Below, in pieces: positions 7,507-57,851 of a stretch of DNA of 64,000 bases (the first letter of the stretch is position 1; each line of letters opens with the position of its first letter). Source of the DNA: Candidatus Latescibacterota bacterium (GTDB taxonomy: Bacteria; Latescibacterota; UBA2968; GCA-2709665); contig OZ242358.1 in NCBI GenBank assembly GCA_965208835.1, forward strand, positions 1,856,001 through 1,920,000. The letters run 5' to 3'. Made by a program: the position numbers and the translations under genes. The notes beneath the pieces are model-generated. The model ran no database searches. It saw only the letters and a program-made list of their open reading frames with translations, and was not told where the DNA came from.

Positions 7507-7564
7507 CGGGCACTCCTTCCGGTTGCGGCAGCGACCCGACCTGGACGGGCCCGCCGGCGGGCCT

Positions 7565-11871: not shown

Positions 11872-11873
11872 GT

Positions 11874-16324: not shown

Positions 16325-16519
16325 TCAGTTGGGAAGCAGGCGCTGAACCCGGTCCTGGTCGGATTTATGCACCACGGCGGGTTTTCGAAGGTGCATCTTG
16401 CGTTTGCTGCTCTTTCTTGCCAGATTATGCGTGACCGTTGACTTCTTACGTCCAATCACACCGGATTTCCGGCGTTTGAACCGTTTCGCGGCTCCTCGGT
16501 GGGTCTTCATTTTTGGCAC
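16325..16519 (-). CDS. rpmI: 50S ribosomal protein L35
   Basis: (V)[14 protein letters not shown]; AGGAG RBS upstream of GTG. Confidence 0.97.
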
Positions 16520-16659
16520 GTTCAACTCCTTGGCAAAGCTCGTTTTCAGCGTACACGGGGTATTGAAACCGGAACCCTGACAGGCACAACGGGCGGCATC
16601 CGGTATTTCCTGCGAGTGCCGCGTGCCGATGGCGTGTGCGCCGCTGCCGTCGGCGGACG

Positions 16660-17196
16660 TTACTTCGGCGCAATGATCACGACGATGTTGCGGCCCTCGT
16701 CCTTGATGGGCATTTCGGCCGCACCGACCTCCCGAAGGTCTTCCTCGGCCCGTTCCAGCAGTTCTCTGCCCTGCATTCGATACATATTCTGTCGGCCGCG
16801 AAATTCCACGGAGATTCTGACCTTGTGCCGGTGCTTCAGGAAGTTCTCGGCGTGGCGAATCTTGAATTCGTAGTCGTGATCGCTGATTCTGGGTCCGAGG
16901 CGGATTTCCTTCAGTTGCGATGCGGTCTTCTTGCCTTTCTTCTGCTTCTTGCTCTGCTCGTACCGGTACTTGCCATAGTTCATGATACGGCAGACCGGCG
17001 GTCGGGCATTGGGAGCGACTTCGACCAGGTCGAGGTCGGCTTCCATCGCCATTTCCATCGCCTTTCTGGTTTCTACGATCCCGACCTGCTCGCCGTCTTT
17101 GTCGACCAGTCGGATCTGGGGAATGCGGATCTGTTCGTTGACGCGGGGCGCTCTTTCCTGTTTTCGATCTCTGAAAACTCTTGGACCTCTGTTGAT
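16660..17196 (-). CDS. infC: Translation initiation factor IF-3 (probable ATC start)
   Basis: RVNEQIR, LDLVEVAPNARPPVCRIM and LKEIRL; GGAGG 8 nt before an in-frame ATC, with no suitably spaced ATG/GTG. Confidence 0.93.
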   Translation of the reverse strand: MNRGPRVFRDRKQERAPRVNEQIRIPQIRLVDKDGEQVGIVETRKAMEMAMEADLDLVEVAPNARPPVCRIMNYGKYRYEQSKKQKKGKKTASQLKEIRLGPRISDHDYEFKIRHAENFLKHRHKVRISVEFRGRQNMYRMQGRELLERAEEDLREVGAAEMPIKDEGRNIVVIIAPK

Positions 17197-39822: not shown

Positions 39823-40935
39823 ATGAAAATCACGCGTGTAACCGCAATGGTGCTGAGGCTGCCCCACGTCACCGATGCCTGCGACGGTACGCAGGATACC
39901 TGTCTGATCAAGGTCGAAACCGACGCCGGACTCACGGGTTGGGGAGAGGTGGATTCCTGTCCGACCGCGGTTAAGGCCGTCGTGGATGCGCCGCTGTCGC
40001 ACCAGATCTGCAACGGACTGGCAAACGCCCTTGACCATGAGGACCCGCTGGCGGTGGAAGCGTGTATGCAGCGAATGACGGACGCGGCGAACTACTATGG
40101 CGGTGACGGCGTGGGGCTGCACGCCATGGCGGGCGTCAATCAGGCGCTCTGGGATATCGCGGGCAGGGCCCGCGACGTGCCGGTCTACCGGCTTCTGGGC
40201 GGGCCATTCAGGAAGCGTTTCCGGGCGTATTGTTCGATTCTGTTCGGTGATTCACCGGCACAGACCGGAGAACTCGGACGGATGTTTGCTGGAGAGGGCT
40301 TTACGGCGGTCAAGTTCGGCTGGGGGCCGATGGGGGAGGACGAGGAGACCGATATCGCACTGGTACGGGAGGCGCGTCGAGGCGTCGGAGACGGGGTGGA
40401 CGTGCTGATCGACGCGGGACAGGTCTGGGACTGGAAGACAGCACTGAAGCGGGCTCGCCAGTTCGCTGAGTTCCGTCCGTTCTGGCTCGAGGAACCCCTG
40501 CATCCGTCCGACCTGCGCGGTTACGCTAAGCTGGCGGCGGAAAGCCCCGTACCCATAGCGGCGGGTGAAGCGGAGGCGAGGTTGGACGCATTCGAGCGAC
40601 TGGTGGCGGAAGCCGGGCTGGACTGGGTACAGCCTGACCCGGGACGGTGCGGTATTTCGACCATGGTGGAGGTTGGAAGGATGGCGCACCGCTGCCATGC
40701 AAGGGTCGTGAACCACAGTTTCAAGAGCGGGATAACAATCGCCGCGTCGCTTCACGCGCTCGCCGCGGTACCCGGCGGGGAGATGTTCGAGTATTGCATG
40801 TCGGAATCCCCGCTGCGCCACGAACTGACGCACGAACGCTTCGAAGTCGTCGACGGGCACGTGGCGGTGCCGGAGGGCCCCGGCCTTGGCGTGACGGTCA
40901 ACGAAGAGACGCTGGAGAAGTACCGGGTGGCATAG
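39823..40935 (+). CDS. Mandelate racemase/muconate lactonizing enzyme family protein
   Basis: GWGE, ALWDIAG, AVKFG, LIDAG, WLEEP, AGE and QPD. Confidence 0.9.
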   Translation: MKITRVTAMVLRLPHVTDACDGTQDTCLIKVETDAGLTGWGEVDSCPTAVKAVVDAPLSHQICNGLANALDHEDPLAVEACMQRMTDAANYYGGDGVGLHAMAGVNQALWDIAGRARDVPVYRLLGGPFRKRFRAYCSILFGDSPAQTGELGRMFAGEGFTAVKFGWGPMGEDEETDIALVREARRGVGDGVDVLIDAGQVWDWKTALKRARQFAEFRPFWLEEPLHPSDLRGYAKLAAESPVPIAAGEAEARLDAFERLVAEAGLDWVQPDPGRCGISTMVEVGRMAHRCHARVVNHSFKSGITIAASLHALAAVPGGEMFEYCMSESPLRHELTHERFEVVDGHVAVPEGPGLGVTVNEETLEKYRVA

Positions 40936-42067: not shown

Positions 42068-43036
42068 TCACTTCCAGACAAGAACGACGCCCATCGTCTC
42101 GCCCAGGCGCGTATACAACAGGTCGAAAGCCTCTGCCGCATCCTGGAAGGGAAATCGGTGGGAGATCATCTCTTCTGCGCGGATCTTTCTTTGGGCAAGA
42201 AGCTGCAGGGCGCGGTCGGAACCTGAAGTGCGTTTGCCGCCGTCCGAATACCCGCCAACAATCCGCCGGCCCTGGATCTTTCCGGAGTCGAGCGGCAGGG
42301 GCTCGTCCTCATAAAGGCCGATAACCTGGATCAGGCCCCTTCGTTTCACCATATCCTGCGCCTGTGCGAACGCTGCCGCCCCCGCGCGCCCGCCCACCGC
42401 CTCCACCACGATTTCCACGCCCCCGCCGCCCGTCAGGCTCTTGACCGCCCTGACGGGATCTTCACGCGACGCATCCACCACGTGGTCCGCCCCCAGACGT
42501 CCGGCCAGTTCGCAACGGAGGGGCAGCGCGTCGACCGCGATCACCCGGGGATCCACTTCCGCGTTCAGCGTCTGCATGCAGATGGAGCCGACGAGGCCCT
42601 GACCCAGAATGGCCACCGTGTCTTCCTTGCGGGCCTCGATTTCCCGCATCCAGAGAACGGAACTGGTACTCAGCGGCCAGAACGTCGCGGCTTCCGAGGA
42701 GACCGCGTCCGGAAGATGCACAACCGGGGCCCGGTGGGGTGAGTCCACGACTTCGACGGCCACGTACTCCGCGTGCGGCGCAAGAGCCGCCACACGGTCG
42801 CCGATGGAGAAGCCGTCCACGCGGACGCCGACCTCGACAACGTCTCCCACGAACGAGTACCCCATGGCTTGATGGTCGATGGCTTCGGGACGGATGTAAC
42901 GCCGCCAGATCTCGGAACCGCGGCTGATCAGACTGCACTCCGCCCGGATCAGCACTTCCGTGGGCAAGACTTCAGGTACGGAGACATCCTCGATGACGAT
43001 ATTGTACTCGCCTTCCGGCTTTGCGACCCGTTTCAT
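42068..43036 (-). CDS. MDR-family (zinc-binding-like) dehydrogenase
   Basis: SLISRGSE, MGYS.VG, GQGLVG, VEAVG and ISHRF. Confidence 0.85.
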   Translation of the reverse strand: MKRVAKPEGEYNIVIEDVSVPEVLPTEVLIRAECSLISRGSEIWRRYIRPEAIDHQAMGYSFVGDVVEVGVRVDGFSIGDRVAALAPHAEYVAVEVVDSPHRAPVVHLPDAVSSEAATFWPLSTSSVLWMREIEARKEDTVAILGQGLVGSICMQTLNAEVDPRVIAVDALPLRCELAGRLGADHVVDASREDPVRAVKSLTGGGGVEIVVEAVGGRAGAAAFAQAQDMVKRRGLIQVIGLYEDEPLPLDSGKIQGRRIVGGYSDGGKRTSGSDRALQLLAQRKIRAEEMISHRFPFQDAAEAFDLLYTRLGETMGVVLVWK

Positions 43037-43148: not shown

Positions 43149-43886
43149 TCAGTTAATCCGCGCGAGGTCCTGGATGTCGCGGCGAAATACCCATGTGCCC
43201 TCTCTTACATAGTGGATCGCGAATGCAAGCCGGGGCCTTCCCCTGGACCGGTTCGCGTATGAGCCGTGAATGGTTCTGCCGGTAAAGAAGACGCCCGATC
43301 CTCGCGGAACCGTAAGGAAAGTGAGTTCATCGCGGCTGACGCCGGCGACTTCGTGCGAGTGCATGGTTTCGGTCCACTTTCTGCCGTCGGGCGCCCGCAT
43401 GGCGTATTCTTTCACCCAGGAGGCATGTTCGCTGCCGTCTTGCGGGGGTCGGGTATTCCGGAGGGGGGCCAGGTGGCTGCCGGCGGCGACGCAAAGACCG
43501 CCGTTGTCCACGTCGGTATCGCTGAGTGCGAGCCAGCACGCCATAAGCGTGCCCGGTTCGTTCCGGATATAATGAGCGTCCTGGTGAAGCGCGATGCCGG
43601 CGCCGCCGCGCGGCGCCTTCGCCATGTACATGGTCTGGACGATCATTGGAGGTCCGTCCAGCAGTTGGGACGCGATGCCGGAGACACGGGGATGCGACGC
43701 CAGGTAACGCCACTGAGGGTCCGCGGTGTGCCTGCGCAGGCCGAGTTCAAGGACTTCCGGAGCCACCGTTTCCGCCTGCGCTTCCAGGAAGGTGTTGATT
43801 TCAGGCGGCGTCAGCAGGTCTGGAACCTGAACGAAACCGTCCATGCGGTACGCGGCCAATTGCTCCTTTGTCAGGAAGGGTCCCAT
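43149..43886 (-). CDS. PhyH family dioxygenase
   Basis: ALHQD, NGGLCVAAGSH and IHGSYANRS..R; start set to ATG 43886. Confidence 0.88.
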   Translation of the reverse strand: MGPFLTKEQLAAYRMDGFVQVPDLLTPPEINTFLEAQAETVAPEVLELGLRRHTADPQWRYLASHPRVSGIASQLLDGPPMIVQTMYMAKAPRGGAGIALHQDAHYIRNEPGTLMACWLALSDTDVDNGGLCVAAGSHLAPLRNTRPPQDGSEHASWVKEYAMRAPDGRKWTETMHSHEVAGVSRDELTFLTVPRGSGVFFTGRTIHGSYANRSRGRPRLAFAIHYVREGTWVFRRDIQDLARIN

Positions 43887-43897
43887 CGTGGCGCAGG

Positions 43898-44842
43898 TCA
43901 GGTGAGGTCGAACGGGTTGGACCAGGCTTTTGTACCGTCCACTCCGATGACTTCGAATCGGACCCACCGCGCGCCCGGCCGCAGCGTAAAGGTGGCGCTC
44001 GTGAAGGGTTTTCCGGATCCTCTGTATTCGGTTCCGAAAGTATCGCAAATCGCCAGGACACACAGGGATTCGGAGCATTCAAGGGTGGCTTCGACCGGTT
44101 GTTTCTCTCCTTCGTTTCTCTGAAGGGTGATGTTTCGAATCTCGGTGCCGGTACTCGAGTAGCTCGCGCCCCGTTCCAGCGCATCGAGAATGGCCCCCGG
44201 AGACCGTTCCTTCACGCGTGCCATGGTCCAACCGCCGTACGTGTCGCGGTTATCCGATTCGAGGGCGTGGGAGTCGTCGTTGGCCAGGGCGGGATACAAC
44301 CTGTTTTCCAGGTCCATCCAGTCGTCCCAGTGAACGCCGGATTCCCCCCGGCCCGCGCATCGGCACGTTGTGTTGAATACCTCCACGCCGGCGAATCCCG
44401 TGAGCGGCGCGGTGTCTCTCAGGATATTGACCGAACTCCAGTACGGGTGGGCCAGCCACGTGCTGCCTCCCTGGTCCCGGACAGCGTCGATCACGTGCTG
44501 AGGCGGCATGCGCTCCGAGTCGATGTCTTCGTGGACGTTCAGGCAGAGAAAATGGTGTTTCTGTCCGCCGAACGGATTGTCCGGGTGCAGTTCGGCGCCC
44601 TGAATGAGTACAAAGTCGTCCGGACGAGCCACGGAATCGATTCGGGTGATCCTGTAGTGGTCCGAGAGACAGAGAAAGTCGTACCCCTGGCCGACGTACC
44701 CGTCCAGGCGTTCCTGGGGCGACGCTCTGCCGTCGGAGTTCGTCGTGTGGGAGTGGAGGTTGCCTTTCAGCCAGACGTAACCGTCGTCGGCATCCAGGCT
44801 GAATGGATTCACGAGGTCGTGCCGCGGCGCGTTTTCAGCCAT
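43898..44842 (-). CDS. PHP-domain (CehA/McbA-like) metallohydrolase
   Basis: WLKGNLHSHTTNSDG, LSDH, LAHP, EVFN and DDSH. Confidence 0.85.
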   Translation of the reverse strand: MAENAPRHDLVNPFSLDADDGYVWLKGNLHSHTTNSDGRASPQERLDGYVGQGYDFLCLSDHYRITRIDSVARPDDFVLIQGAELHPDNPFGGQKHHFLCLNVHEDIDSERMPPQHVIDAVRDQGGSTWLAHPYWSSVNILRDTAPLTGFAGVEVFNTTCRCAGRGESGVHWDDWMDLENRLYPALANDDSHALESDNRDTYGGWTMARVKERSPGAILDALERGASYSSTGTEIRNITLQRNEGEKQPVEATLECSESLCVLAICDTFGTEYRGSGKPFTSATFTLRPGARWVRFEVIGVDGTKAWSNPFDLT

Positions 44843-44920: not shown

Positions 44921-46090
44921 TCAGGTCCGGTCTACAATCGATGGCAGATGGGTTACCGGACAGGCACGCGCCCCCTTGACGTCGTAACCCATGTCCTTTA
45001 AGATGCAGCTGATCTGGGATTCGAGCTTGAGGAGATATTCCCTTTCCTCGTCGCTCATGGTCTGCCGTGGCGGGCCGACGTCGAAGCCGCGGACGGCAAC
45101 GCCGGTCTTGAAGCCCTCGGGGAAGTTCACACCCAGCAGCATGAGGTTGATGAGGTCCAGGATTCGGTATTGCATGTTGCGCGCGTCCTCGATATCCCCC
45201 GCCAGCGTCTTTTCGTAAATATCCACGATGACTTCGGGAATGATGCCGGAAGTCGCGATCGTGCCGCCGCTGGCGCCCATCATGATGGAAGGGCAGAGGA
45301 TTTCCTCGCATCCCACAAGGACCACATAGTCCGGGCGCTGTGCGCGCAGTCGATGCATGGTGTTGATCAGCCTGGGCATGTCCCTGCTGGAATCCTTCGT
45401 GCCCATAATGCGATCGAACGGCAGCAACTGCTCCATGATTTCCAGCGTAAGTTCCTGCGTGAACTGGGGGATATTGTACAACAGGACGTCGAGAGGGGTC
45501 TGTCTTGCGATTTCGGCAAAGTACTCGAAGAGGCTGGTGTCCGAGATCTCGTAATAGTAGGGGGGAACCAGAGAGATGGCGTCGACGTCGATGCCCGCGT
45601 AATATTCGCTCATTCTAAGTACGTCGCGGAGGTTGGCTTCGCTGGCGCCGGCCAGAACGGGCACGCGCCCCTGGTTGACGTTCGTGACGAGGCGCACGAC
45701 CTCCTTGCGCTCGTCGCTGGACAGGCGCACGAATTCGCCGGTGCTGCCATTGGGGTACAACCCGTGGATGCCGGCTTCGATGAGCCAGTTGACGTAGCGC
45801 TCCATCTCCCTGTAGTTGATGCGGTCATTGCTGTCGAAAATGACGATGTTAGGGCAGAAGATGCCCTTGAATTCCCGTCTGGCGCCGGGGTTGCGGCGCG
45901 GGGACGGCGTTGTCGTCTGCCGGCCGCCGGTTGCCGCCTCTTTTCTGGAAACCTCTACCCGGTTGGCCGCCAGGTAGTCCAGAGCCAGCGGCGTCAGCTT
46001 CGCCCTCGGGCAGATTTCGACCTCTCGCCCTGTGCCCAGCTTTTCCTTGAGCAGCTGTTCGGTAACCACCGGATCGTCAATACGGACCAT
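44921..46090 (-). CDS. DapA/NAL-family Schiff-base aldolase with N-terminal BMC-associated domain and C-terminal amphipathic tail
   Basis: GSTGE, LYNIP and GTKDSS; N-terminal VVTEQ..LTPLALDYL segment; directly downstream of the BMC genes. Confidence 0.85.
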   Translation of the reverse strand: MVRIDDPVVTEQLLKEKLGTGREVEICPRAKLTPLALDYLAANRVEVSRKEAATGGRQTTTPSPRRNPGARREFKGIFCPNIVIFDSNDRINYREMERYVNWLIEAGIHGLYPNGSTGEFVRLSSDERKEVVRLVTNVNQGRVPVLAGASEANLRDVLRMSEYYAGIDVDAISLVPPYYYEISDTSLFEYFAEIARQTPLDVLLYNIPQFTQELTLEIMEQLLPFDRIMGTKDSSRDMPRLINTMHRLRAQRPDYVVLVGCEEILCPSIMMGASGGTIATSGIIPEVIVDIYEKTLAGDIEDARNMQYRILDLINLMLLGVNFPEGFKTGVAVRGFDVGPPRQTMSDEEREYLLKLESQISCILKDMGYDVKGARACPVTHLPSIVDRT

Positions 46091-46110
46091 CAATCTCCTC
46101 GGGCGGCCGA

Positions 46111-47271
46111 TCAGTGTATCAGCCGTTCTTCCAGTGCGGGAAACGGGTGGGGAATAAGATGGGCGGACACCAGTTCGCCGTACCTCTCCGCTTCTGCGGC
46201 GCCGACGTTCAGGGCGGCGCGCACCGCGCCGACGTCTCCCCTGACAACGCTTGCAGTGAGAAAGTACCCGACCTTGTACCGGCCCTCGTATTCCACGTCT
46301 GCGGACTTCAGCATCTGATCCACGGCCTTGACCAGGGCCACGGTGCTGCGCGTTTCGATCAGCCCCATCGCCTGATTGCGGCTCGTGGCATTCCTGGACA
46401 GGCTCCCGCCAAAACAGGCCATGACTTCGGAAGATGGACGGGAAACGACACAGGATGCATTCAATTCCCCGGCTTCCCGCGCGCCATCGACGCCGGCTTC
46501 CACGGCAGCCTGGACGGCGTCAAGGGCGCCACTCACCAGCGCGTCGACCCGGCCTCCGCTGGCGATGACGAGGCGCACGAGGTCAACGTCGGCCGCCTTG
46601 ACCATCGCGTCGGACCCGCCGACAGCGCTCACATAGCCCGTTGTTTCAAGAATACCCAGCGCGCCGATGTCTGCCTGCGGAGCGTTCGATTTCGGCGTAT
46701 CGGGGAGCATTGGCGCGATGCCCGGCTCAGGGCTCGGAATCGCCAGGGTCGCGTAAACTTCCCCTACCTCATCCGCACACGCGATTCCGGCCTGCAGGGC
46801 AGCCTGGACCGATGAAATATCGCCCCGAACCACAAGATGAACCAGCGCACCGCCGACGGACGTCCAGCCTGCGACGTGGACGGGCGCGCTCTTGACCATG
46901 GCGTCGGCGCCACGGATGAGGGGTACCATGCCACGCGTTTCGAGGATGCCCATTGCCTGCGCGCCAACCGGTCTTGCCGTACCCGCGTCCGCCCTGTGCG
47001 GCATGGATTCGAGGGCGCCCGGGGCAGGCCCCGCGATGACGTCCGCGGTAATCAGGTCACCGTGGTTCCCGGCCTCGGACCGCCCGACCCGAAGGGCGGC
47101 CTCCACGTCCGAAACGGCGCCTTCGATCACAACGGTCAGCCAGCCGGAACCCACGCCGTGACGCCCCAGAACCCGGACGTCCACGGTCTTCAGCATGGCG
47201 TCGAGCGCCGCGACAAGCGCGGTCATGCCGCGGGTCTCCAGAATTCCCAGGGCATGGTTTCCTGCGGCCAC
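46111..47271 (-). CDS. Bacterial microcompartment shell protein with four tandem BMC domains
   Basis: Four repeats of A(L/M)G(I/L)(L/I)ET...D(A/Q)M(L/V)K...V.G....V.AA...G, each about 95 aa. Confidence 0.9.
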   Translation of the reverse strand: MAAGNHALGILETRGMTALVAALDAMLKTVDVRVLGRHGVGSGWLTVVIEGAVSDVEAALRVGRSEAGNHGDLITADVIAGPAPGALESMPHRADAGTARPVGAQAMGILETRGMVPLIRGADAMVKSAPVHVAGWTSVGGALVHLVVRGDISSVQAALQAGIACADEVGEVYATLAIPSPEPGIAPMLPDTPKSNAPQADIGALGILETTGYVSAVGGSDAMVKAADVDLVRLVIASGGRVDALVSGALDAVQAAVEAGVDGAREAGELNASCVVSRPSSEVMACFGGSLSRNATSRNQAMGLIETRSTVALVKAVDQMLKSADVEYEGRYKVGYFLTASVVRGDVGAVRAALNVGAAEAERYGELVSAHLIPHPFPALEERLIH

Positions 47272-47279
47272 GGCGGCGC

Positions 47280-47837
47280 TCAGGGGCCGAATGCCCGCAG
47301 CACGTCGGGCAAGGGTTTGGGGATGAGGGCGGCGCCGAGGAAATTTTCTCCGGTCTCGACGCTCGCGCGACCCACGGACAGGGCCTCGGTCACGGAAGCG
47401 ACGTCGCCAAGAATAAGTGAGCAGACCACCCGGTTGTGTACAGTAAGTACGTTATAAACCTGGACGTCGGCCGCCTTCACCATTCTGTCATTGGCGGTGA
47501 CGTGAGCGCCGTAACCTCTTGTTTCGATCAGACCCAGGGCGCCGGACGGTGTCCGCCGCTCCGTAGCGATTGCATTCGAAACGTATTCCCGGCAGGCGGG
47601 TTCGGGGTGCGTCATCGGCGCCGCAACCACGCGGTCCACCACCTCTCTGGCCGCTCGTTCGCCGCTCTTGAGCGCCGTTTCAACCCTGCTGATGGATCCA
47701 CCGAGAAAAACGGTGGTGAATCCGCCGATGGACTCCCAGCCCAGGAGGTCCACGCCAGCGGCTTTACCGGCGGCGTCCGACGCGAGGATAATCCCGGCGA
47801 CGCCTTCGACTTCGATCATTCCGATCGCGGCTGACAT
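47280..47837 (-). CDS. Bacterial microcompartment shell protein with two tandem BMC domains
   Basis: AIGMIEVEG..DAAGKAA and ALGLIETRG..DRMVKAA repeats. Confidence 0.88.
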   Translation of the reverse strand: MSAAIGMIEVEGVAGIILASDAAGKAAGVDLLGWESIGGFTTVFLGGSISRVETALKSGERAAREVVDRVVAAPMTHPEPACREYVSNAIATERRTPSGALGLIETRGYGAHVTANDRMVKAADVQVYNVLTVHNRVVCSLILGDVASVTEALSVGRASVETGENFLGAALIPKPLPDVLRAFGP

Positions 47838-47893
47838 GCCCCGGTCCAGGTGTCTTGATATCGCACGGTACGGATCCGATAATTCAATCCGAC

Positions 47894-47922
47894 ATAATAG
47901 ATGCCGGTCGGAACAAAGTCAA
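47894..47922 (-). promoter_or_regulatory. Sigma70 promoter of the BMC operon
   Basis: TTGACT-N17-TATTAT, 56 bp upstream of the first ATG. Confidence 0.65.
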
Positions 47923-48410: not shown

Positions 48411-50831
48411 TCAGAACAACAGTACCGAGACCGCCTTCTGAATCATGGCAATGGAGACGGAAGCCATGCCAACCAGGGACATGCCCACCGAAAACCCCAC
48501 ATAGAGTACGGCGGCGTAGAGGCGCCATTGCTGTTTGCCGAAACGCTTCCAGAAATAGTACCGCGCGAGAAGCGCCCCGATGATCTCGGTGATCATGATG
48601 TGGGGAATGTTGGTCAGACTCCGTATGTATCCGAAGATGAGCAGGACCGGCAGGCCCAGGACGGACAGAACCACGAACGAAACCAGGCCGACTGCGAGTC
48701 CGATGACGATCACCACAGGCTTGATGGCTTCGAAGAGGATGGGCTCGTCGTCCGAACTCTGCAGAAAGGAACCGTCGAAAGAGGGTACCTGGTCCACTTC
48801 GAACTGGTACACGAGTTCACGGTCCTCGGGGTCCAGGGCCGCGAGGACGACCAGGTCGGGGTTGGGGTTGTCCGCGTGGCTCCCGTCATCGGGACTGCGC
48901 AAGACGGGCGCCGAAGGCAGACCCAGCCGGAGGGCCTCGGAAATATCGGGTTTCGACCGATCCACCGGGAGCGGCGGTACAAGCGGCTTGTCGGGACTTT
49001 TGAAGTTCGTATAAAAATACCCGACTCGGGACCAGGGCCCGTAGGCGCGCTGCTCGTGGTCATCTATGTGTACGTCGGCGGAGGCACGGGCACGCCAGTA
49101 CCACCAGTTGCCGTCGGGCAGATTGCTCGGCTGGAAGGATACGGTACCGGCGGACGGTTCGTGCTCCACCTCACCCTGCATGGTGCCGGTGTACCAGACG
49201 CTGCTCTGGAGCGCCCGCAGCGGCCACATCATCTGGACGTAGGGGTAGGAGGACGAGGGAATGGGCGCCAGTTTCCAGATATAGGACCAGTACATGAAAC
49301 TGGTCAGGAGGATCAGCGGGATCATGAACACCTCAGCCTTCAGGATCCCGGTGAATTTCGAGCCCGTGAGCTCGATCTGACGGAATGTTTCGGCCTGTGC
49401 GCCCCAGTTGGCCAGGGGGAAGGGCACGAACCAGATTTCGATACCCCTGAACCCGCTCAGAAAGATCGTGGCTTCCTTGATGTAGGGGATATTGACGTTC
49501 TGCCCGACCAAGCCGTCCAGCCGGGCGTTGACGAAGGAGATCAGCGGCGTGTAGACAAACGCGAAGATGAAGAAGAAGGCGAGCAGGAAGGTACTCACGA
49601 GGTCAGGGAAGAGGACCTTGGCAAGGATTATGGTATAAAGGCTCGCAAGACAGAAGAGTACGATGCAGATCCAGATCCGGAAGTCTCCCCGGCCGGGCGG
49701 CGGCGTCCAGCTTCCCGTTTCCTTCTTCTCCACGCGCGCTGTACGGACCCCGGTCCAGACCTGGTAGAAACCGATCACTGCAATGGCGAAGGTGATGCCG
49801 ATCCCGAAGCTCATCCAGAAATCGATGCCCGTGACGAAGTGGGTCATGATGGTATCCATGCCCATGTACCAGTTTGGCATATACCCGTAGGAATACAGGA
49901 TGGGGCCCGCCGCAGTGTGGATGACGACGCCGATGAATGCGCCCATAACCGCCCAGAAGGGCGCCAGCAGCCCGGCAAAGATGGGAGCCAGGTGCAGCGT
50001 GAAGCCCAGCGGCGTGGCCGGCAGGAAATAACCCGTGTACTGGGTGAAATCCACCCACGGGATGGGAATGAGCTGAAGCGGGCTCTCCATGAACGCGCCG
50101 GTTATGGCGGGTACTGCCACGTAAACGGAGCCGAATACCACTCCGATAACGGCGCCGATGCTGAAGACCCTCCAGCGCCAGCTGTATTGGCCGCTGCTTT
50201 CTTCGGCAAGCGCCATCGCGCCCTGGGCGTTGATTGGCGCGAACGGAAAGGGCAGGCGTTCGTAATCTGAGGTGATACGGAAGAGTACGTAGCTGGCTGT
50301 GAACCACTGGATGCGCCCCATGATCATCCCGAGTACGAGCAGGGAGATGGGCAGCAGCCAGTCCTGATGCAGGAAGGTGCGGTCGATCAACGCAGGAGAA
50401 TCGGGCGGGGGCGCCCACCAGCGGGGGATGAGGTGGGAGATGCCGAACTGCTTGGCGGCAGGAGACTGCACATAGTACTGCTGCCAGAGCAGCCCTTCGA
50501 ACATGCCGGTTTCACGGGCGACCAGGGCGCTGGTGACGTAGTAAAGCAGATATAGTTCCTGCTTTTTGAGCACCGTGAACGAGCGCTTGGCCAGCTCAAG
50601 GAACAGGATGATGGTCACCCACTGCGCGGCGGCGCCTACGGAATGCCCCACCATGAGTTCCAGGTAGATGTTGCCCGGAACCATGATGACGGAAACGAAG
50701 AGAGCGCCGAGAATGGTCTTGGAGTTGAAGCCCTCTTCGAATTCCTCGGGGACTTCAAGCAGATCCCGGTATTCTTCGATTTCCTCGTACGGATTGGTAT
50801 TCCGCCTGCGAATGCGATCCAGAAAGGCCAT
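48411..50831 (-). CDS. OPT-like 'peptide transporter' membrane protein with inserted FN3/Ig-like soluble domain
   Basis: Many TM helices; FEEGF, AAQWVT, ERLPFP and PIPSSSYP; hydrophilic insert containing WYWRARA. Confidence 0.7.
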   Translation of the reverse strand: MAFLDRIRRRNTNPYEEIEEYRDLLEVPEEFEEGFNSKTILGALFVSVIMVPGNIYLELMVGHSVGAAAQWVTIILFLELAKRSFTVLKKQELYLLYYVTSALVARETGMFEGLLWQQYYVQSPAAKQFGISHLIPRWWAPPPDSPALIDRTFLHQDWLLPISLLVLGMIMGRIQWFTASYVLFRITSDYERLPFPFAPINAQGAMALAEESSGQYSWRWRVFSIGAVIGVVFGSVYVAVPAITGAFMESPLQLIPIPWVDFTQYTGYFLPATPLGFTLHLAPIFAGLLAPFWAVMGAFIGVVIHTAAGPILYSYGYMPNWYMGMDTIMTHFVTGIDFWMSFGIGITFAIAVIGFYQVWTGVRTARVEKKETGSWTPPPGRGDFRIWICIVLFCLASLYTIILAKVLFPDLVSTFLLAFFFIFAFVYTPLISFVNARLDGLVGQNVNIPYIKEATIFLSGFRGIEIWFVPFPLANWGAQAETFRQIELTGSKFTGILKAEVFMIPLILLTSFMYWSYIWKLAPIPSSSYPYVQMMWPLRALQSSVWYTGTMQGEVEHEPSAGTVSFQPSNLPDGNWWYWRARASADVHIDDHEQRAYGPWSRVGYFYTNFKSPDKPLVPPLPVDRSKPDISEALRLGLPSAPVLRSPDDGSHADNPNPDLVVLAALDPEDRELVYQFEVDQVPSFDGSFLQSSDDEPILFEAIKPVVIVIGLAVGLVSFVVLSVLGLPVLLIFGYIRSLTNIPHIMITEIIGALLARYYFWKRFGKQQWRLYAAVLYVGFSVGMSLVGMASVSIAMIQKAVSVLLF

Positions 50832-51213: not shown

Positions 51214-54200
51214 TCAGACCCGCTTCGCCACCTGTGCGTCCGATACGAGTATTCGCATGCCTTTTTCCCTGTATGCGGCTTTTTCCGCGGGGTCGACGGT
51301 TCTCCAGATGAGAAACTGTTTGCGGAGGGTATTCATGAAACCCTGGTTGACGCGCCGCCATGACGCGACTTCGCCCGATCGTCGCTTGAGGGTGAGCGTG
51401 AGGGTATAGATATCGAATTGGCCGGTGGGTTCCGCCTCAAAGCGAAGCTCCTCGCTCACGCCCAGATCGAAGGGCGCCAGCCACAGGGTCGTGCGGATGG
51501 CGTATCCGCTCTCACCGCCGCCGCCCTTCCCGTACAGATGGGCGCCGTCCGTGTAGAACGCCCCCATCGCTTCGCCGCTGTGGGAGTCAAAGTAGTCCGT
51601 CAGGAACACACAGAGCCCGAATACGTCGTTTCCGCCAACCGTAAACGGAAATTCGAAACGCCAGTCGTCTCCCTCCGGCTCGGGGATTTTCCAGCGCCGG
51701 GACACGTCCGGCACGGCCATCAGGGATGCCTGCCTGGCAGGATAGAGGGTGGACAGGATGACGACGGCCATAACGAGAGCGGACGAGACAACGGCCGACT
51801 GGGCGGAATAGTTGACCGTGACGCCTGAGAGCCAGCCCTGCCAGAGAAGCAGCTTGGCGACCGCCTGGCCCAGCATGTAGCCGCTCACCGTACCGAGGAC
51901 GGCGTATACGCAGGCTTCCGCGATAAACAGAAAAGCGACGTGGACCGGCGCCAGGCCCACCGCGGAATAGACGCCGATTTCCCGAAACCGTTCGTACACG
52001 GAACCCATCATGGTATTCAGCACGATGAGCGAGGCGATGAGGATGGGGATAAAGAGATCGCTCATCCCGCGTCTCGACGTGTCGCCCAGCGAACTGAAAA
52101 TGGAGACGTTTACGCGACCGTCCGCGTCTGGAAGCCCCGCGAACAGTACGACCGAGAGGCGTGACAGAAGCTCCTTGACATTGCCCTCCACGTCTGATCC
52201 GGCGTCGAATCGGAGGGCGACCGACTGGAGCGGGCTGCCCACCTGGCGCAGGAACGCGTACGGGACGATCAGGACGTCGTCGGGGTTGATGTGCTCGAAG
52301 GGCATTATTTCGACTTCAGGTTGTTCCAGGCCCTGTTTTTCCCGCGTTTCCTGGGTGGTCATCTGCTCGATGGCTTCCTCATCGGTCAGCTTGAAGTCCG
52401 CGGGACTGAGGGGTTCCTCATCGAGGTCCTTGAGCTCGCTGAACGCCCCGGCGTCGATCAGGCCGATCACCGGCAGCGATTCCCCGAACACCCGGACGCG
52501 TGACGCCTCAAGGCGGCCCGGATCCACGCCAAGGAGTTCCGCTATCTTTTCGGGCAGGATGCACGCGGATTCTCCCGGACGGAACCACCTGCCGACCTTC
52601 AGCGTCTTGTGGACGCCGGTCACGTCAGCCTCCTCAGGCGTCATTCCCAGAACGCCGAGTACGTGTGTTGAGCTGTTTTCGGACTCGACCGGGATAATCT
52701 TTTTCTCCCGCGTATAGTACCAGCTTCTTGGGGCCGTTATCGCGGATTCCCCGAAGTGCGTGACGGCGTAATCGTAGACGACGTCTTCCAGCGGGCCCCA
52801 GAACTTGCTGCGGATGAGCATACCTGGGTACGGACCCTCGGTGCCTATGGGAATCCGGCGAAATTCGAGAGCCGTTTTGATGGACGTAAACGAGAGAACC
52901 GTAAATGTGAGGAGCAGGAGCGTGGTGAACGTAAGCACGGTGCGCAATTTTCGGCGTTTCATGTTTGCGATACCGAGCTGAAAGGCCGCCAGGGAGGCGG
53001 AGATTCGACCCACGTCGGTTTCATGCAAACGCACTTCCGGGACCCGCAGCCGGCGCATGGTTTCGTTGAAACGATTGAATACGAGGGAAATCACGAACAC
53101 CGCGAGCGCCAGAATGACGAAGGCGAGCAGCACGACCACGGGATTGGAGATCTCGAACGCCGGATGCACGTTTGAAAGAAAGAGCCAGATGAGCACGAAA
53201 ATACCGATAAATCCCGCGATCTGCCGCCGGATATCCACGGCGGTGAAGATGAGGCGTTCGGCGAAGAACGCGCACGGGATGACCAGGGCCATGAAAAAGA
53301 CAACGCCGCGCACCACGTCGTTCTGCGTGTCCTTGACGTCCGGATAGGCGCGGGACTCGATGCCGAGGGCCGCGCGGGTATGTTTCATGAAAACGTCCCA
53401 GCGACTTTGGGACATCGCGGCTTCGGCCATATCCAGGTGGAGGCGGGCCCGGCCGTGCAGCATGTTCAGACGCTGGTTTTCGATGGCGTATTTCTGCATC
53501 TCCTGCTTCCGCGCTTCGTTCAGGGTCCACATGTCACGCGCGGCCAGAAAGGAGGTACGCGCAAACGACCCGTGGGTGAGCGTGGGGTAACCCGTGCCCC
53601 TGGCGATTTCTTCACTCTCGGCGCTCGTCGCATTCAGCAGCAGGAATCGGATGCCGATGTCGCCGGAGCCCGCCGCGACGCCGCCGGCCCTCATGGCGAC
53701 CTTGATTCTCTCGCCAGGACGCGTGAACAGGGTGCCCACGGGTTCCGTCGGGCCGAAGCCGATCGCGTACCCGTATTCCTGCGGCGTGACGTTGCCGATT
53801 CCGTAGACGCTGATCTGGGAGAGCTTGGTGAGGAAACGCGGATCGACCGTATCGTAGAAATCGGTGGCGATACAGGGAAAGAGGATGATATTTCTCTTGG
53901 AGATCCACCAGTCCATGTCGAAGTCGCCGCGGTAGATCCGCGCCTGCTGCCCGTAGTTTGGCGCGTATGTAATCTCACCGGTCTCCGGATCCTGAAAGTA
54001 GGCGCTGACGGAGACGCGGCGTTCGGCGATTCCCGGCATGTAGAATTCGCCGTTCTCGTCGGCAAGGTCGTAATAGATGCGCCGGACGCCCTTGACCGAT
54101 TTGTCGATGCCCATCCTGAGCGCGGCGACGGCGCCCGCCTTGGGCCGGTCGGGTACGATGCTCCGCCTGGGAAAGGTACGTACGAATCCCTTCAGGCCTC

Positions 54201-55749
54201 GCATCCTGTCATCGGGATTGAGTCGATAATCAGGGATGAGCGTAGGGTCGTTCAGGGCAATGTCGAGCACACCCGTAATCAGGCGGACCTGTTTTGCGAG
54301 ATTGTCGAAGTTTACCCCTTCCGGTCTGTCCAGGGGCGTATCGACCCGGAAGCGGGCATCGTTCAGCGTGACCAGAGACAGGGCAAGCGTGCCGGCTTCG
54401 AGAACGACTTCGCCGTCGGTCTTCAGGTTCGCGCCGGGGATGAACATATCCCAGGTCATTCCGCCCGTGGGATTGATGCCGTCCAGCAGCGCCAGATCGG
54501 GGTCGAGGCCGAAGGCGGGTGCGATCGCCTGCGAGATGCGGACGAATTTCTTTCCGAAGGGTGTGAAGAACCGGTTGTAGTAGAAGTTGCGCGTGCTGTT
54601 CCAGACGCCTATTTGAGCGGTCTGGCTCGACAGGTCCAGGCCGATGAAGAGTCGAATGTCGATGGGGTCGGTCATCAGGGCCGCGAAATGCCTTTCCTTT
54701 CTGGCGTGGCGGCCCAGAAAATCGCAGATTCCGCGAAAGCCCAGGTGGTGGGCCGAAGTGGCCAGAAAGAGTACCGTGCGCCCCGGGGGATATCGTTTGA
54801 AGTAATTGACCAGTTCCAGCAGGGCGACGGCACCGCTGGCCATCTCGGCGCCGGGGGCCAGTGCCGGGACGACGGACATGGCGTCGTAGTACGCGTTGAT
54901 CACGACGATCTGTTCCTTCAGTATCGGATCCGAGCCCGGAAGGAAGCCCAGGATATTGTGGGCGGTGTGTTTCTCCCACTCCATTCTGGCATGCAGTTCG
55001 ATTTCAAGTTCGCCGCGTTGTTCGAGCAATGTCTTCAGAGCCTGCCCCGACTCTTTATCGATCCAGAATCGTTCAACACTGTTGGGCACCTGCAGGAATT
55101 TCTGCTCGGCTTCGGTATAGAAAGTTGAATCCGGTTCGATGAAGATGATCTGTTCCGCCCCCAGCGTGGCCGCGTTCAGCCAGTTGTTCCGGGTATTGAA
55201 ATCCATGAGAACGGCCGTCCCCTCGAGCACGTGACCGTTGAAGTCGGCGAATTCCCCGGTTGCGCCGTAGATCAATCGCGTGCGGACCCCTTCCCGCGGC
55301 AGGGTGGAGGTCTTGACGAGGTTCGGCCAGATCGCGTTGATGGGAAACGTGACATTGTCCCGCAAAAGCGTCAGGCTGCCGCCCTGATCGACGGGCGAGG
55401 TGACGTCGAACGGCTCGGCGCGGACGTCCTTGAGACCGGCGTTTTCGAAACTGCGCCGGATGTAATCGGCGGCGGCCGCGTGTCCGGGGTATCCGGGAAC
55501 TCGAGACCGGCGCTCCGTAAAGCGGGACACGTGCGTTTTCACGCTGGCGTCCGATACGGTATCGAGTACGCGAACCGAAGTGGCGCTCGCTTCCGGAACA
55601 GACGGAAGCGGCGTGGAAACGGGCGCTTTCAGCCCAAGCATGGCGGCGAGGTATGGGTTGACGCGTTCCGGCCCCAGGGCCAGACCGGTGAAGGCCGCGG
55701 CGGCGAAGACGAGCGTAAGTGCCAGTCCGATGTGTCGCGGGTTTTTCAT
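51214..55749 (-). CDS. Large FtsX/MacB-type permease with N-terminal PA + M28-peptidase-like domain (1511 aa)
   Basis: N-terminal TM, SRVPGYPG, HNILGFLPG, NAYYD, TM bundle, NMKRRKLRT and VYERFREIG..SAVGLAP. Start is probably ATG 55749; the longer ORF-track frame overlaps the upstream gene. Confidence 0.85.
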   Translation of the reverse strand: MKNPRHIGLALTLVFAAAAFTGLALGPERVNPYLAAMLGLKAPVSTPLPSVPEASATSVRVLDTVSDASVKTHVSRFTERRSRVPGYPGHAAAADYIRRSFENAGLKDVRAEPFDVTSPVDQGGSLTLLRDNVTFPINAIWPNLVKTSTLPREGVRTRLIYGATGEFADFNGHVLEGTAVLMDFNTRNNWLNAATLGAEQIIFIEPDSTFYTEAEQKFLQVPNSVERFWIDKESGQALKTLLEQRGELEIELHARMEWEKHTAHNILGFLPGSDPILKEQIVVINAYYDAMSVVPALAPGAEMASGAVALLELVNYFKRYPPGRTVLFLATSAHHLGFRGICDFLGRHARKERHFAALMTDPIDIRLFIGLDLSSQTAQIGVWNSTRNFYYNRFFTPFGKKFVRISQAIAPAFGLDPDLALLDGINPTGGMTWDMFIPGANLKTDGEVVLEAGTLALSLVTLNDARFRVDTPLDRPEGVNFDNLAKQVRLITGVLDIALNDPTLIPDYRLNPDDRMRGLKGFVRTFPRRSIVPDRPKAGAVAALRMGIDKSVKGVRRIYYDLADENGEFYMPGIAERRVSVSAYFQDPETGEITYAPNYGQQARIYRGDFDMDWWISKRNIILFPCIATDFYDTVDPRFLTKLSQISVYGIGNVTPQEYGYAIGFGPTEPVGTLFTRPGERIKVAMRAGGVAAGSGDIGIRFLLLNATSAESEEIARGTGYPTLTHGSFARTSFLAARDMWTLNEARKQEMQKYAIENQRLNMLHGRARLHLDMAEAAMSQSRWDVFMKHTRAALGIESRAYPDVKDTQNDVVRGVVFFMALVIPCAFFAERLIFTAVDIRRQIAGFIGIFVLIWLFLSNVHPAFEISNPVVVLLAFVILALAVFVISLVFNRFNETMRRLRVPEVRLHETDVGRISASLAAFQLGIANMKRRKLRTVLTFTTLLLLTFTVLSFTSIKTALEFRRIPIGTEGPYPGMLIRSKFWGPLEDVVYDYAVTHFGESAITAPRSWYYTREKKIIPVESENSSTHVLGVLGMTPEEADVTGVHKTLKVGRWFRPGESACILPEKIAELLGVDPGRLEASRVRVFGESLPVIGLIDAGAFSELKDLDEEPLSPADFKLTDEEAIEQMTTQETREKQGLEQPEVEIMPFEHINPDDVLIVPYAFLRQVGSPLQSVALRFDAGSDVEGNVKELLSRLSVVLFAGLPDADGRVNVSIFSSLGDTSRRGMSDLFIPILIASLIVLNTMMGSVYERFREIGVYSAVGLAPVHVAFLFIAEACVYAVLGTVSGYMLGQAVAKLLLWQGWLSGVTVNYSAQSAVVSSALVMAVVILSTLYPARQASLMAVPDVSRRWKIPEPEGDDWRFEFPFTVGGNDVFGLCVFLTDYFDSHSGEAMGAFYTDGAHLYGKGGGGESGYAIRTTLWLAPFDLGVSEELRFEAEPTGQFDIYTLTLTLKRRSGEVASWRRVNQGFMNTLRKQFLIWRTVDPAEKAAYREKGMRILVSDAQVAKRV

Positions 55750-55844
55750 TGAAATATCCCGATGACCGTTCCGGCGGATCTGTGTAACGTCAAGGGTGTC
55801 GGGGTTGCGACCCCTGCCGCTGAACGAACCAGGGCGGCTTCCGA

Positions 55845-57851
55845 TCAGAAGCGATGCACGCTGTGGCCCCGCTCCGGGAACCAGAGGACGTCGATAAAGG
55901 CCGAGAGTGCGACGCCGAGTATATAGCCGGCGAGCAGGCCGATGAACAATGGACGGGATTTTCTGTAAACGGATGGTCCGCCCATCTTCAGCATGACCAG
56001 TTTGACCAGCCAGGCCATTAATATGGTCAGACTGGTTCGCCGGGCAAGGTACGAACCGGATATGGCCAGTCCGACGGGGTGCAGCGGCCACCAGACGAAG
56101 CGATGCCGGAGGAAGATCAGCAGAAGCGTGGCCACGCCGCCCAGGCCGAAGAACGCCACGTAGTCCGGATGTTCCCGGTAGACGGGCGGATCTGGTGGTT
56201 TTGTAAGGAAGTTCTTGACGGAAGTCGCGGTACCATCGAAATGTTTGGGCCCCGCGCGCACGATTTCCCACGAATTGAAGTTGTACGCGCCGTCCTTGTA
56301 TCCCAGTTGGATGGTGAGCACCACGCTCGCGATCCAACTTACCAGAAAGGCCAGTACGACGGCATACATGAGACGTCGACGGTCGCCGCGTACACCCTCC
56401 GCAACGCGTCCGGCGTGTGCGAGCGCGGGCAGGAAGAGCCCTTTGAAGTGGGAGGTGATCCTGGACGCGAACCGGAGGGCGACCCGTGTGCTTTCGTTGA
56501 CGGCCGATCCCCCGAGGAAGGGCTGCACGAGACCCCACGGACCGGCGGGTACATTGGTGTAGGGCATGCCGGTCTCCGCGAGAATCTTGGCCAGGCCGAC
56601 GTAGGTCAGGATGACTGCCGGAAGGAGCAGGGCCGCCAGGAGCGGATCCATACCGATTCGCCAGAGCCAGAGCCACATGAACCCGAGCCCCACGAACGCC
56701 GCGATCACCGCGGTCCGATACGAAAGCGGTTCGTCCCTGTCGTCCAGGGGATCGTGCCTGCGCCAGGCTTTACGGAGCACGTCCCTCAGGTGGCGTCTGG
56801 CGACCCAGAAGACCGAGGCGGCCAGCATGGCAAACGCGCCCTTGGTTTGCCAGTAATAGACGCCGCGGTAATAATACGGCGATATGGCCGTGAACCCCCG
56901 GCGGTGCAGCCAGCCGCCTTCGACGATGAACAGCAGGTCGAAGAACCAGATGCTGAACAGAACGTCGAGACTGGCGAAATAGGAGAAGAAAATGGTGAAC
57001 AGACCAATGAAGAAATACCCGGGCGGATGCTGGCGGTCGAGCCAGAGCCACCTGCCGCGATAGACCGGAAACCTCGGAAAGCCGGGCAGGAAATAGTTGA
57101 TGCAGTTCCAGGCGATCATCCCGAAGGCCAGCCCGAAGCCGATCCAGAACAGGTAATTCTTCGTGAAATCAGGGAGTGCGAATTTACCGCTTCCGGGTTC
57201 TTCCGCCATGTGAATCAGGGGCGCCATCGCCGGAAATGCCAGTCGTTCGTTCTGCACCCACTGTCTGCGAAAGACGACGGCCACGCAGCCGAGGACCACG
57301 AATGCAGCGACGATGAACGTGGTCCACCACAACAGCGGAAGCACCCAGGCATCCCATGGGATCTGCGCGCCTTTGGGAGCGCCTTCGAAGAACCAGGTGA
57401 CCGCCTTGTTTTCGTCTGAAGGGATCAGCCACGGATTGACATAAGGATGGAGGTAGATATGCCATTCGTTGACTTCGGTCGCGAAATAGTACGGGGATGC
57501 GATGTACCCAAGCAGATATCCGCTCAAGCCGAAGCCGGGTACAGCGGCGCCGACGACGCCCATGGCCAGAATGGTGTGCCATTCCGCGGGTGAAAGCTTC
57601 CACCGGGAAAAACGCGCGATGAGCGCGCCTGCCATGATCATCAGCGTGAACACGATGAGCATGGCCATCGGTACGTGGCTGTACGTCATCAGCGAGCCGT
57701 GCACCACGTACCTGAGATGGATCGCCAGGGCGTCGAGACCGAGGACCAGAACCAGGCCGGAAACCACGGATCGGACCGTGACGCCGCTGGCCGATTTTGC
57801 GAAGGCTGCATCCGTTTCGGCAGTTTCTGCTGTTCGTTCAGGGCTGGCCAT
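55845..57851 (-). CDS. DUF6785/DUF6784-like polytopic membrane protein (668 aa)
   Basis: QWVQNERLAFP, WWPLHPVG and PLFIGL; many TM helices. Confidence 0.78.
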   Translation of the reverse strand: MASPERTAETAETDAAFAKSASGVTVRSVVSGLVLVLGLDALAIHLRYVVHGSLMTYSHVPMAMLIVFTLMIMAGALIARFSRWKLSPAEWHTILAMGVVGAAVPGFGLSGYLLGYIASPYYFATEVNEWHIYLHPYVNPWLIPSDENKAVTWFFEGAPKGAQIPWDAWVLPLLWWTTFIVAAFVVLGCVAVVFRRQWVQNERLAFPAMAPLIHMAEEPGSGKFALPDFTKNYLFWIGFGLAFGMIAWNCINYFLPGFPRFPVYRGRWLWLDRQHPPGYFFIGLFTIFFSYFASLDVLFSIWFFDLLFIVEGGWLHRRGFTAISPYYYRGVYYWQTKGAFAMLAASVFWVARRHLRDVLRKAWRRHDPLDDRDEPLSYRTAVIAAFVGLGFMWLWLWRIGMDPLLAALLLPAVILTYVGLAKILAETGMPYTNVPAGPWGLVQPFLGGSAVNESTRVALRFASRITSHFKGLFLPALAHAGRVAEGVRGDRRRLMYAVVLAFLVSWIASVVLTIQLGYKDGAYNFNSWEIVRAGPKHFDGTATSVKNFLTKPPDPPVYREHPDYVAFFGLGGVATLLLIFLRHRFVWWPLHPVGLAISGSYLARRTSLTILMAWLVKLVMLKMGGPSVYRKSRPLFIGLLAGYILGVALSAFIDVLWFPERGHSVHRF

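Follow-up and report, generated by a model that had tools for sequence, protein, structure and literature searches.

Paired two- and four-domain shell proteins in a Latescibacterota genome and a proposed asymmetric microcompartment tile

Two adjacent genes in a Candidatus Latescibacterota genome encode bacterial microcompartment (BMC) shell proteins with two and four tandem BMC domains, here called T and Q. They lie in a stretch of 64,000 nucleotides (positions 1,856,001 to 1,920,000 of contig OZ242358.1, assembly GCA_965208835.1), referred to below as the window. Textbook shell tiles are homo-oligomers of one- or two-domain proteins, and their pores are therefore three- or six-fold symmetric. 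T and Q carry six domains between them, all different. The two genes are coupled and inherited together, each domain position is conserved in its own right, and the pair occurs in the context of a metabolosome. From these observations we infer a 1:1 ring, the role of its pore and its substrate. On balance we favour the reading that T and Q join in a ring of six different domains, which would be an asymmetric tile of the metabolosome shell with a probable link to the aldolase of the adjoining gene.

Architecture and conservation of the gene pair

The Pfam profile PF00936 (cut-off 24.5 bits) matches T in two stretches (E 8.4e-32, 109 bits) and Q in four (E 1e-76, 253 bits). The best stretches are colinear with the profile and span positions 1-75 of 75; the domains are thus canonical and not circularly permuted, which places both proteins outside the permuted classes BMC-H(p), BMC-T(sp) and BMC-T(dp). 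The order of strands and helices is identical across all six domains in AlphaFold2 (AF2) models. Domain starts are evenly spaced, at 96-99 residues over both proteins and 98-99 within Q. After each domain comes a similar short segment made of Pro-x-Pro and a helix, and both chains stop just past the last of these. The edge lysine, found in the motif D-x-x-x-K, mediates tile-to-tile contacts in solved shells. All six window domains have this motif, and across 70 genomes its D and K are conserved to at least 90% at each of the six positions. The combined mass of the two proteins is 58.2 kDa.

Only 8 bases separate the stop codon of T (TGA) from the GTG start of Q, and this arrangement is general. 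Relatives were scanned with one genome per species; 142 were returned and 78 loci kept, in which open reading frames (ORFs) with four domains were called using a hidden Markov model (HMM) built from the six window domains. A four-domain ORF is present in 69 of the 78 loci, many of them on single-contig chromosomes, and a two-domain ORF ends directly upstream of it in every one of the 69. In 68 loci the stop of T lies -1 to 28 nt from the first BMC residue of Q, and in the remaining one the distance is 191 nt. The two genes thus overlap or directly adjoin, which is the usual layout for subunits made in equal amounts. Co-inheritance is equally strict. T orthologues (at least 45% identity) occur in 84 of 168 genomes of the phylum, and 83 of those 84 also have Q. 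In the sole genome with T and without Q, T is truncated by the end of a 2050-bp contig. Most relatives have, a few hundred bases upstream of T, a second two-domain gene and a BMC-H (single-domain) gene. A whole-genome scan found no multi-domain BMC gene besides T and Q in the window genome. The second two-domain gene is missing here, yet T is present with Q; T has thus been kept without an ordinary BMC-T-like gene.

The nine loci lacking a full four-domain ORF are readily accounted for. Four are cut by contig ends (L078, L082, L083 and L085), L086 is a distant two-domain gene with 36% identity, and L087-L089 are single-domain genes from Cytobacillus. The last, L077 (3258-4431), is from a related metagenome-assembled genome (MAG) in which Q is frameshifted past the third domain and so split 3+1, perhaps through decay or an error in sequencing. 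L077 is what might be cited for regarding the four-domain ORF as a product of misassembly or gene calling, or as a decaying gene, but we give that explanation virtually no credence. Q is intact in 69 assemblies with strong position-specific conservation, and contigs from two other studies, one spanning 45900-47562 and another 46102-47900, cross it without insertions or deletions; the ORF is therefore not an assembly fusion. Q also falls in an ESM Atlas cluster of 457 members whose representative has 382 aa. A chance origin is excluded by the E-values of the domains together with the conservation in the 69 other assemblies.

Homologues of about the length of Q number at least 305. Among the best 120, lengths are 366-424 aa and identities to Q 51-91%; the few that carry names are called merely 'BMC domain-containing protein', 'CcmO' or 'CcmL/EutN', and the MAG labels listed are Gemmatimonadota or Candidatus Latescibacterota. 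Among the 168 genomes of the phylum, Q is found in 83. It is concentrated in two families (15 of 21 and 65 of 76 genomes), with 2 of 31 in a third and 0 of 39 across the other eleven. The lineages with the T-Q family include sponge-associated and marine ones. The family is thus not rare: roughly every second genome sampled in one phylum carries it.

The six domains form distinct lineages. In a tree built from 167 domains, taken from the window and 18 loci, T1, T2, Q1, Q2 and Q3 are each monophyletic (19 sequences apiece, support 0.73-1.0), T1 and T2 lying on long, separate branches. Q4 is grouped in a clade with the single-domain BMC-H of the loci, to which it is 47% identical. Orthologous domains are 56-68% identical between genomes, whereas domains at different positions within one genome share only 25-43%. 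The pore loop is likewise specific to each of the six positions; over the 70 genomes it is mostly conserved, many of its residues reaching 90% or above. When the pore hairpins are placed by the secondary structure of the models, their tips read Gly-Gly in both T1 and Q2, Gly-Ser-Gly in Q1, Ser-Gly-Gly in Q3, His-Asn-Arg in T2 and Gly-Tyr-Phe in Q4.

The low identity between domains within a genome means that Q is no recent duplication of a two-domain gene. A simple duplication was also rejected on the tree and the identity matrix, in which Q1 is not paired with Q3 nor Q2 with Q4. The second two-domain gene of the relatives offers another comparison. In L044, a typical relative, it encodes 186 aa and abuts a BMC-H gene of 87 aa (6707-7543 of that locus), about 450 nt upstream of T; equivalents of this pair are present in most loci outside the genus of the window genome. 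Q2-Q3-Q4 is colinear with, and about 39-44% identical to, the two-domain plus one-domain pair, a hint that gene fusion may have given rise to Q.

Much of the initial annotation of the window survives these analyses. It had counted two and four tandem BMC domains, as the PF00936 profile also does, and every one of the six edge-lysine motifs and six pore-loop strings that it quoted is present in the translations. Its description of six different domains is borne out by the tree, the identity matrix and the pore loops, and its estimate of about 58 kDa for a 1:1 ring agrees with the computed mass. It had proposed that adjacency of four-domain and two-domain genes be examined across genomes, with the outcome described above (69 of 69 loci; co-occurrence in 83 of 84 genomes). 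It had also named an assembly fusion as grounds for abandoning the idea; on the independent contigs, Q is continuous.

Proposed assembly of T and Q into a tile

Four domains do not divide six, so Q alone is unable to close a six-fold ring. In the proposed assembly, T and Q would be produced in equal amounts from their abutting genes and would pair 1:1 into one flat ring in the order T1-T2-Q1-Q2-Q3-Q4, the domains of Q filling four consecutive positions and T the other two. With a mass of about 58 kDa and no internal symmetry, this ring would form a hexagonal tile, sitting in the facets beside BMC-H hexamers and BMC-P pentamers and held there by the edge lysine. Since the pore loops all differ and each is conserved, its central opening would be custom: T1, Q1, Q2 and Q3 would contribute small Gly/Ser tips, and the bulky or charged tips of T2 (His-Asn-Arg) and Q4 (Tyr-Phe) would flank T1 over the chain junction. 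The tile would serve the DHDPS-family aldolase, whose gene lies directly downstream, as its own passage or docking site. A sugar acid would be dehydrated to a 2-keto-3-deoxy acid, which the aldolase would split inside the compartment into pyruvate and an aldehyde. A stronger form of the proposal we hold more tentatively, as a little short of an even prospect. In this form T and Q would be an obligate 1:1 heterodimer and the first natural tile with six genetically fixed positions, the composite pore or face of Q4-T1-T2 would be a private gate or docking site of the aldolase, and six domains per ring would be the rule however they are divided (6x1, 3x2, 2x3 or 4+2).

The AF2 models of the single chains have high scores. 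T has a predicted local distance difference test score (pLDDT) of 93.5 and a predicted template modelling score (pTM) of 0.90; for Q the values are 89.1 and 0.88, and a pTM this high for a four-domain chain indicates that the model is confident about the relative placement of the domains. The best sequence match of both proteins (E 3.7e-35 for Q, 1.8e-23 for T) is 6NER, a synthetic fused pair of BMC-H domains from Haliangium ochraceum solved within a shell. It is also the top match by fold: in Foldseek comparisons, two consecutive domains of either model superpose on 6NER chains with template modelling (TM) scores of 0.80-0.92. 6NER shows that covalently chained neighbours in a ring are able to build shells. 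It is engineered, with two identical domains per chain, and forms a homotrimer; T and Q occur in nature, and the six domains of their ring, all distinct, would have to come from two different chains. Natural two-domain BMC-T chains fit the models poorly (TM 0.40-0.45, root mean square deviation about 15 Å). This holds for PduT, HO BMC-T1 and 3NWG, and, the T and Q structures being predicted models, calls for caution rather than amounting to proof. Neither model is thus superposable on solved chains of the standard class BMC-T(s), and of the two proteins only T has the exactly two canonical PF00936 domains of that class. The comparison suggests that in-ring neighbours in T and Q may be chained in the rotational sense opposite to that of solved BMC-T proteins. 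Among the PDB matches to Q and T there is no solved chain with more than two BMC domains.

Complex prediction was run on Q and T, each with its own alignment, and on three controls with unrelated proteins. T and Q scored 0.56 (runs at 0.46, 0.56 and 0.72), and the best control scored 0.00. The T-Q runs share at least 91% of their contacts, and partner pLDDT is at least 85. Of 80 solved complexes, 58 reach the mark used for this score, as do 2 of 110 mismatched pairs; only 7 of the 80, but both passing mismatches, reach it with a score of 0.60 or less. The prediction gives weak support to the pairing, pointing to compatibility of the chains and not to specificity.

The tie between the tile and the aldolase can be judged from the loci. 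A DHDPS-family homologue directly follows Q in 65 of the 69 loci, and in one of the other four (L059) the recovered sequence ends 531 nt past Q. The remaining three (L026, L051 and L065) have intact flanks and no aldolase; a gene resembling a FAD oxidoreductase adjoins Q instead. T-Q is intact in these loci, so the bond between T and Q is tighter than that between tile and aldolase, and the latter is not obligatory.

The loci without an aldolase are among several points that weigh against the T-Q ring and its link to the enzyme. The NCBIfam matches of the aldolase and of a nearby dehydratase-like protein are all below their cut-offs and give no equivalog assignment of reaction or substrate. 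The complex score falls in a band where, unless a strong prior exists, wrong calls outnumber correct ones. Since the controls were non-BMC proteins and BMC rings are common among solved structures, the pass may reflect likeness alone. Adjacent shell genes often form no mixed rings, and the same loci have another abutting pair, the two-domain plus one-domain genes upstream of T. No single-chain fusion of six domains was seen in the best 120 of at least 305 matches of 212-676 aa or at 677-2000 aa. The best 150 of 5322 HMMER matches have four domains at most. Coming from the tops of the lists, these negatives are weak evidence. Finally, the model of T resembles the fused pair of 6NER, which is known to trimerise, and T homotrimers are thus possible.

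The resemblance to 6NER, the lack of a six-domain fusion among the matches listed and the commonness of adjacency among shell genes also speak for the rival in which T forms homotrimers and Q assembles separately. Twelve is the smallest common multiple of four and six, and three Q chains would supply twelve domains for two rings, either side by side, with linkers that bridge adjacent tiles, or stacked face to face; the stacked variant would be a covalently tied version of the double-layer BMC-T. We regard separate assembly as unlikely, though deserving of some weight. It does not explain why T is never found without Q in the 168 genomes save at the contig end, nor why the window genome has dropped the other two-domain gene and kept T with Q. 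The edge lysine is present in all four domains of Q, and their uniform spacing of 98-99 residues leaves no special linker between Q2 and Q3, as a crossover from ring to ring would suggest. Known double-layer BMC-T trimers use permuted domains, whereas the domains of T and Q are non-permuted. The complex prediction, weak as its support is, places T on Q consistently.

A second rival, less probable again, would have Q form an open arc of four domains that is completed by T, by the other two-domain protein or by two BMC-H subunits, giving a mixture of tiles. CcmK3 and CcmK4 form mixed hexamers, so rings of more than one domain kind have precedent. Mixed hexamers of BMC-H paralogues, with altered pore make-up, are also described for Klebsiella shell proteins in the accessible part of PMC12058022. 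The closeness of Q4 to the BMC-H of the loci, and the colinearity of Q2-Q3-Q4 with the neighbouring gene pair, also speak for such an arc. Against it, Q is strictly adjacent to, and co-inherited with, one specific partner, and the long separate branches and own conserved pore loops of T1 and T2 suggest a dedicated role for T. The known mixed hexamers are statistical mixtures of single-domain subunits in proportions that gene structure does not set, whereas in the 1:1 T-Q ring composition and order would be fixed by the two chains.

Operon, aldolase and the main microcompartment locus

Table 1. Features of the T-Q region, in window coordinates. Positions of the BMC domains are from the whole-genome PF00936 scan.
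Feature	Position	Strand	Details
MR_MLE (enolase-superfamily) sugar-acid dehydratase-like	39823..40935	plus	PF13378, PF02746
Zinc-type alcohol/sugar dehydrogenase	42068..43036	minus	PF00107, PF08240
PhyH-family dioxygenase	43149..44078	minus	PF05721, E 1e-25
CehA/McbA-family metallohydrolase-like	43898..44842	minus	314 aa; NCBIfam NF038032, 89.5 bits (cut-off 80); no Pfam match
DHDPS/NAL-family class I aldolase	44921..46093	minus	390 aa; PF00701, E 8.9e-56, residues 75-362
Q, four-domain BMC shell protein	46111..47271	minus	386 aa, 39.1 kDa; GTG start
Domain Q4	46144-46371	minus	
Domain Q3	46435-46662	minus	
Domain Q2	46729-46956	minus	
Domain Q1	47026-47253	minus	
T, two-domain BMC shell protein	47280..47837	minus	185 aa, 19.1 kDa; ATG start; first gene of the operon
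Domain T2	47313-47540	minus	
Domain T1	47625-47828	minus	
Promoter-like site	47894..47922	minus	10/12 consensus positions; in 573-bp gap upstream of T

The genes around T and Q are listed in Table 1. The nearest solved relative of the aldolase is YagE of E. coli, a 2-keto-3-deoxy sugar-acid aldolase (E 1.6e-36). The aldolase of the window has GSTGE, YN-x-P and G-x-K-D-S at residues 116, 206 and 231, which we take to be the motifs of the DHDPS/NAL family, with the Schiff-base lysine, and it belongs to that family. The aldolase could be the aldehyde-producing signature enzyme of a metabolosome, judging by its family and position. Its first 50 or so residues (45941-46093) form an additional N-terminal domain, conserved in 70 sequences with an invariant L-T-P-x-A-x-D core and joined to the catalytic domain by a variable Pro/Ala-rich linker. 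This domain has no Pfam match at E up to 10 and, searched as a profile of 19 sequences, no PDB match at E up to 10; it may be a targeting or docking domain.

The genes beyond the aldolase are partly conserved in the closest loci. The metallohydrolase-like and PhyH genes are syntenic in L012-L025; the PhyH ORF overlaps the gene before it, so its listed start is probably over-extended. The zinc dehydrogenase is syntenic in 12 of the 13 closest loci (L012-L024) and was not found in L016, where the contig ends earlier. The MR_MLE gene is syntenic in the closest loci as well. Its product is similar to the dehydratases of galactonate, arabinonate and rhamnonate, with each match below its cut-off, and could feed a 2-keto-3-deoxy acid to the aldolase. 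The promoter-like site upstream of T is a consensus match alone, one of 4 in the region against 1.7 ± 1.4 in shuffled sequence. Further upstream, at 48411-50831 on the minus strand, is a gene for a multi-pass membrane protein of 806 aa without a Pfam match, which is conserved at the corresponding position in the 14 closest loci (L012-L025). Beyond it lies a very long ORF, also on the minus strand (51214-56676), listed as 1820 aa with a start that is probably over-extended.

In most relatives T, Q and the aldolase are part of a complete locus. The order in L044 is typical: genes for a rhamnose mutarotase-like protein, a FAH-family hydrolase, an aldehyde dehydrogenase, a BMC-P and a PduL-type phosphotransacylase are followed by the two-domain BMC and BMC-H pair, an ORF of 148 aa without a Pfam match, T, Q, the aldolase, a FAD oxidoreductase and a second DHDPS-like gene. 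In the window genome the set of T, Q and aldolase is a satellite, 2.2 Mb from the other shell genes. The main locus, at 4.13 Mb, has two BMC-H and three BMC-P genes, an aldehyde dehydrogenase, a PduL-type phosphotransacylase and acetate kinase. The three BMC-P genes (PF03319) lie at 4.133-4.136 Mb, and shell genes as a whole at 1.90 Mb and 4.13-4.14 Mb. The genome thus encodes pentamer and hexamer proteins and a metabolosome core. Three ORFs of the main locus (L090, 4124001-4144000) have no significant Pfam match: 6943-8400 (485 aa), 11594-12328 (244 aa) and 16333-16695 (120 aa). On gene content, T and Q appear to belong to a real aldehyde-processing metabolosome. The accessible text of PMC4454575 links the BMCs of Latescibacteria to the use of fucose and rhamnose.

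The distance of 2.2 Mb, and the extra conserved N-terminal domain of the aldolase, could be taken to mean that T and Q work outside any shell as a stand-alone platform organising the aldolase and neighbouring enzymes. The initial annotation had raised such a stand-alone enzyme scaffold as an option. We consider it highly improbable, as most relatives carry T, Q and the aldolase within a full locus that includes BMC-P, BMC-H, aldehyde dehydrogenase and phosphotransacylase, and the window genome has shell genes elsewhere. The edge lysine that serves tile-to-tile contact is in all six domains. Satellite loci made up of a shell protein and a signature enzyme are, moreover, a described pattern (PMC8217296, in the text available). 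The annotation's idea of a 4+2 assembly fares better than its scaffold: domain counts, strict pairing and six separate lineages all agree with it, and for the ring itself the complex prediction (0.56) lends the weak support noted above.

Relation to known shell proteins and significance

Standard BMC-T(s) proteins such as PduT, one of the best matches by sequence for both T and Q3-Q4, resemble the pair in having canonical non-permuted PF00936 domains, linkers of about 20 residues, the edge lysine and a pseudo-hexagonal tile of six domains. They differ in that a homotrimer of Q, with four domains per chain, cannot make one ring, and in that their two domains alternate around the ring whereas the T-Q ring would have six different ones. 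The pore cysteine of PduT carries an iron-sulfur cluster; it has no counterpart in the pore loops of T and Q.

EutL, which forms a satellite module with EutABC, provides a parallel for the pairing of tile and enzyme: the gene of a special tile accompanies that of an enzyme, the tile presumably letting in the enzyme's substrate, and such modules may lie off the main locus (PMC8217296, text available). T, Q and the aldolase are likewise a satellite here, and in the main locus in most relatives. EutL is a permuted two-domain trimer encoded with ethanolamine ammonia-lyase, in contrast to 4+2 canonical domains and a class I aldolase. For the compartment as a whole, the closest likeness is to the FRAG and PVM-like metabolosomes, which share the BMC-P triplet, aldehyde dehydrogenase, phosphotransacylase and shell genes at several sites. 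FRAG types, with fragmented loci and BMC-P triplets, are reported from Gemmatimonadetes in the accessible text of the 2021 BMC catalogue (PMC8217296); the window genome has both the triplet and shell genes at more than one site. The PVM type of the same text has a class II aldolase (pfam00596), not a DHDPS-family enzyme.

The initial annotation knew of no characterised four-domain class, and none was found in the literature searched. Only single-domain, tandem two-domain and permuted classes appear in the accessible text of the 2014 taxonomy (PMC4207490), the 2021 catalogue and its preprint (PMC8217296) and MCPdb (PMC8007038). The main text of the catalogue names no shell protein with more than two domains, although its locus diagrams may show such genes. 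More generally, full-text searches, mostly of journals open without subscription, turned up no account of a BMC protein carrying three or more domains. The T-Q pair is real, conserved and unusual, and we found shell building of the 4+2 kind described in no paper searched.

Other multi-domain proteins exist in sequence collections. An exhaustive HMMER search gave 5322 matches, and domains were counted in the best 150: one has four domains, 21 have three, 65 have two and 63 have one. Fragments of Q-type proteins make up seven of the 21 three-domain matches, which leaves 14 complete natural proteins of 283-330 aa, in 14 clusters at 50% identity (P0131-P0135, P0138, P0141-P0143, P0146, P0151, P0157, P0158 and P0177) labelled Elusimicrobiota, Dehalococcoidia or 'CcmO'. 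In the metagenome loci L091-L097 the three-domain gene is the only BMC gene in the recovered sequence, with flanks of several kb just in L093-L097. Another metagenome region (L102) has a neighbouring pair of three-domain genes (290 and 313 aa) with 3 nt between them; the same region was recovered again as L106, with the first gene disrupted. No paper describing three-domain BMC proteins was found. The three-domain proteins and the 3+3 pair fit with six domains per tile, however these are split among chains.

If the fixed 4+2 ring proves true, six pore and edge positions would be tunable independently, both by evolution and by engineers. Each tile would also have a defined orientation in the lattice and could offer binding sites that are impossible in symmetric tiles. 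The gene pair further flags an uncharacterised type of metabolosome, whose likely signature enzyme is a DHDPS-family aldolase. Such an aldolase metabolosome could explain how these bacteria handle the aldehydes that arise from sugar acids.

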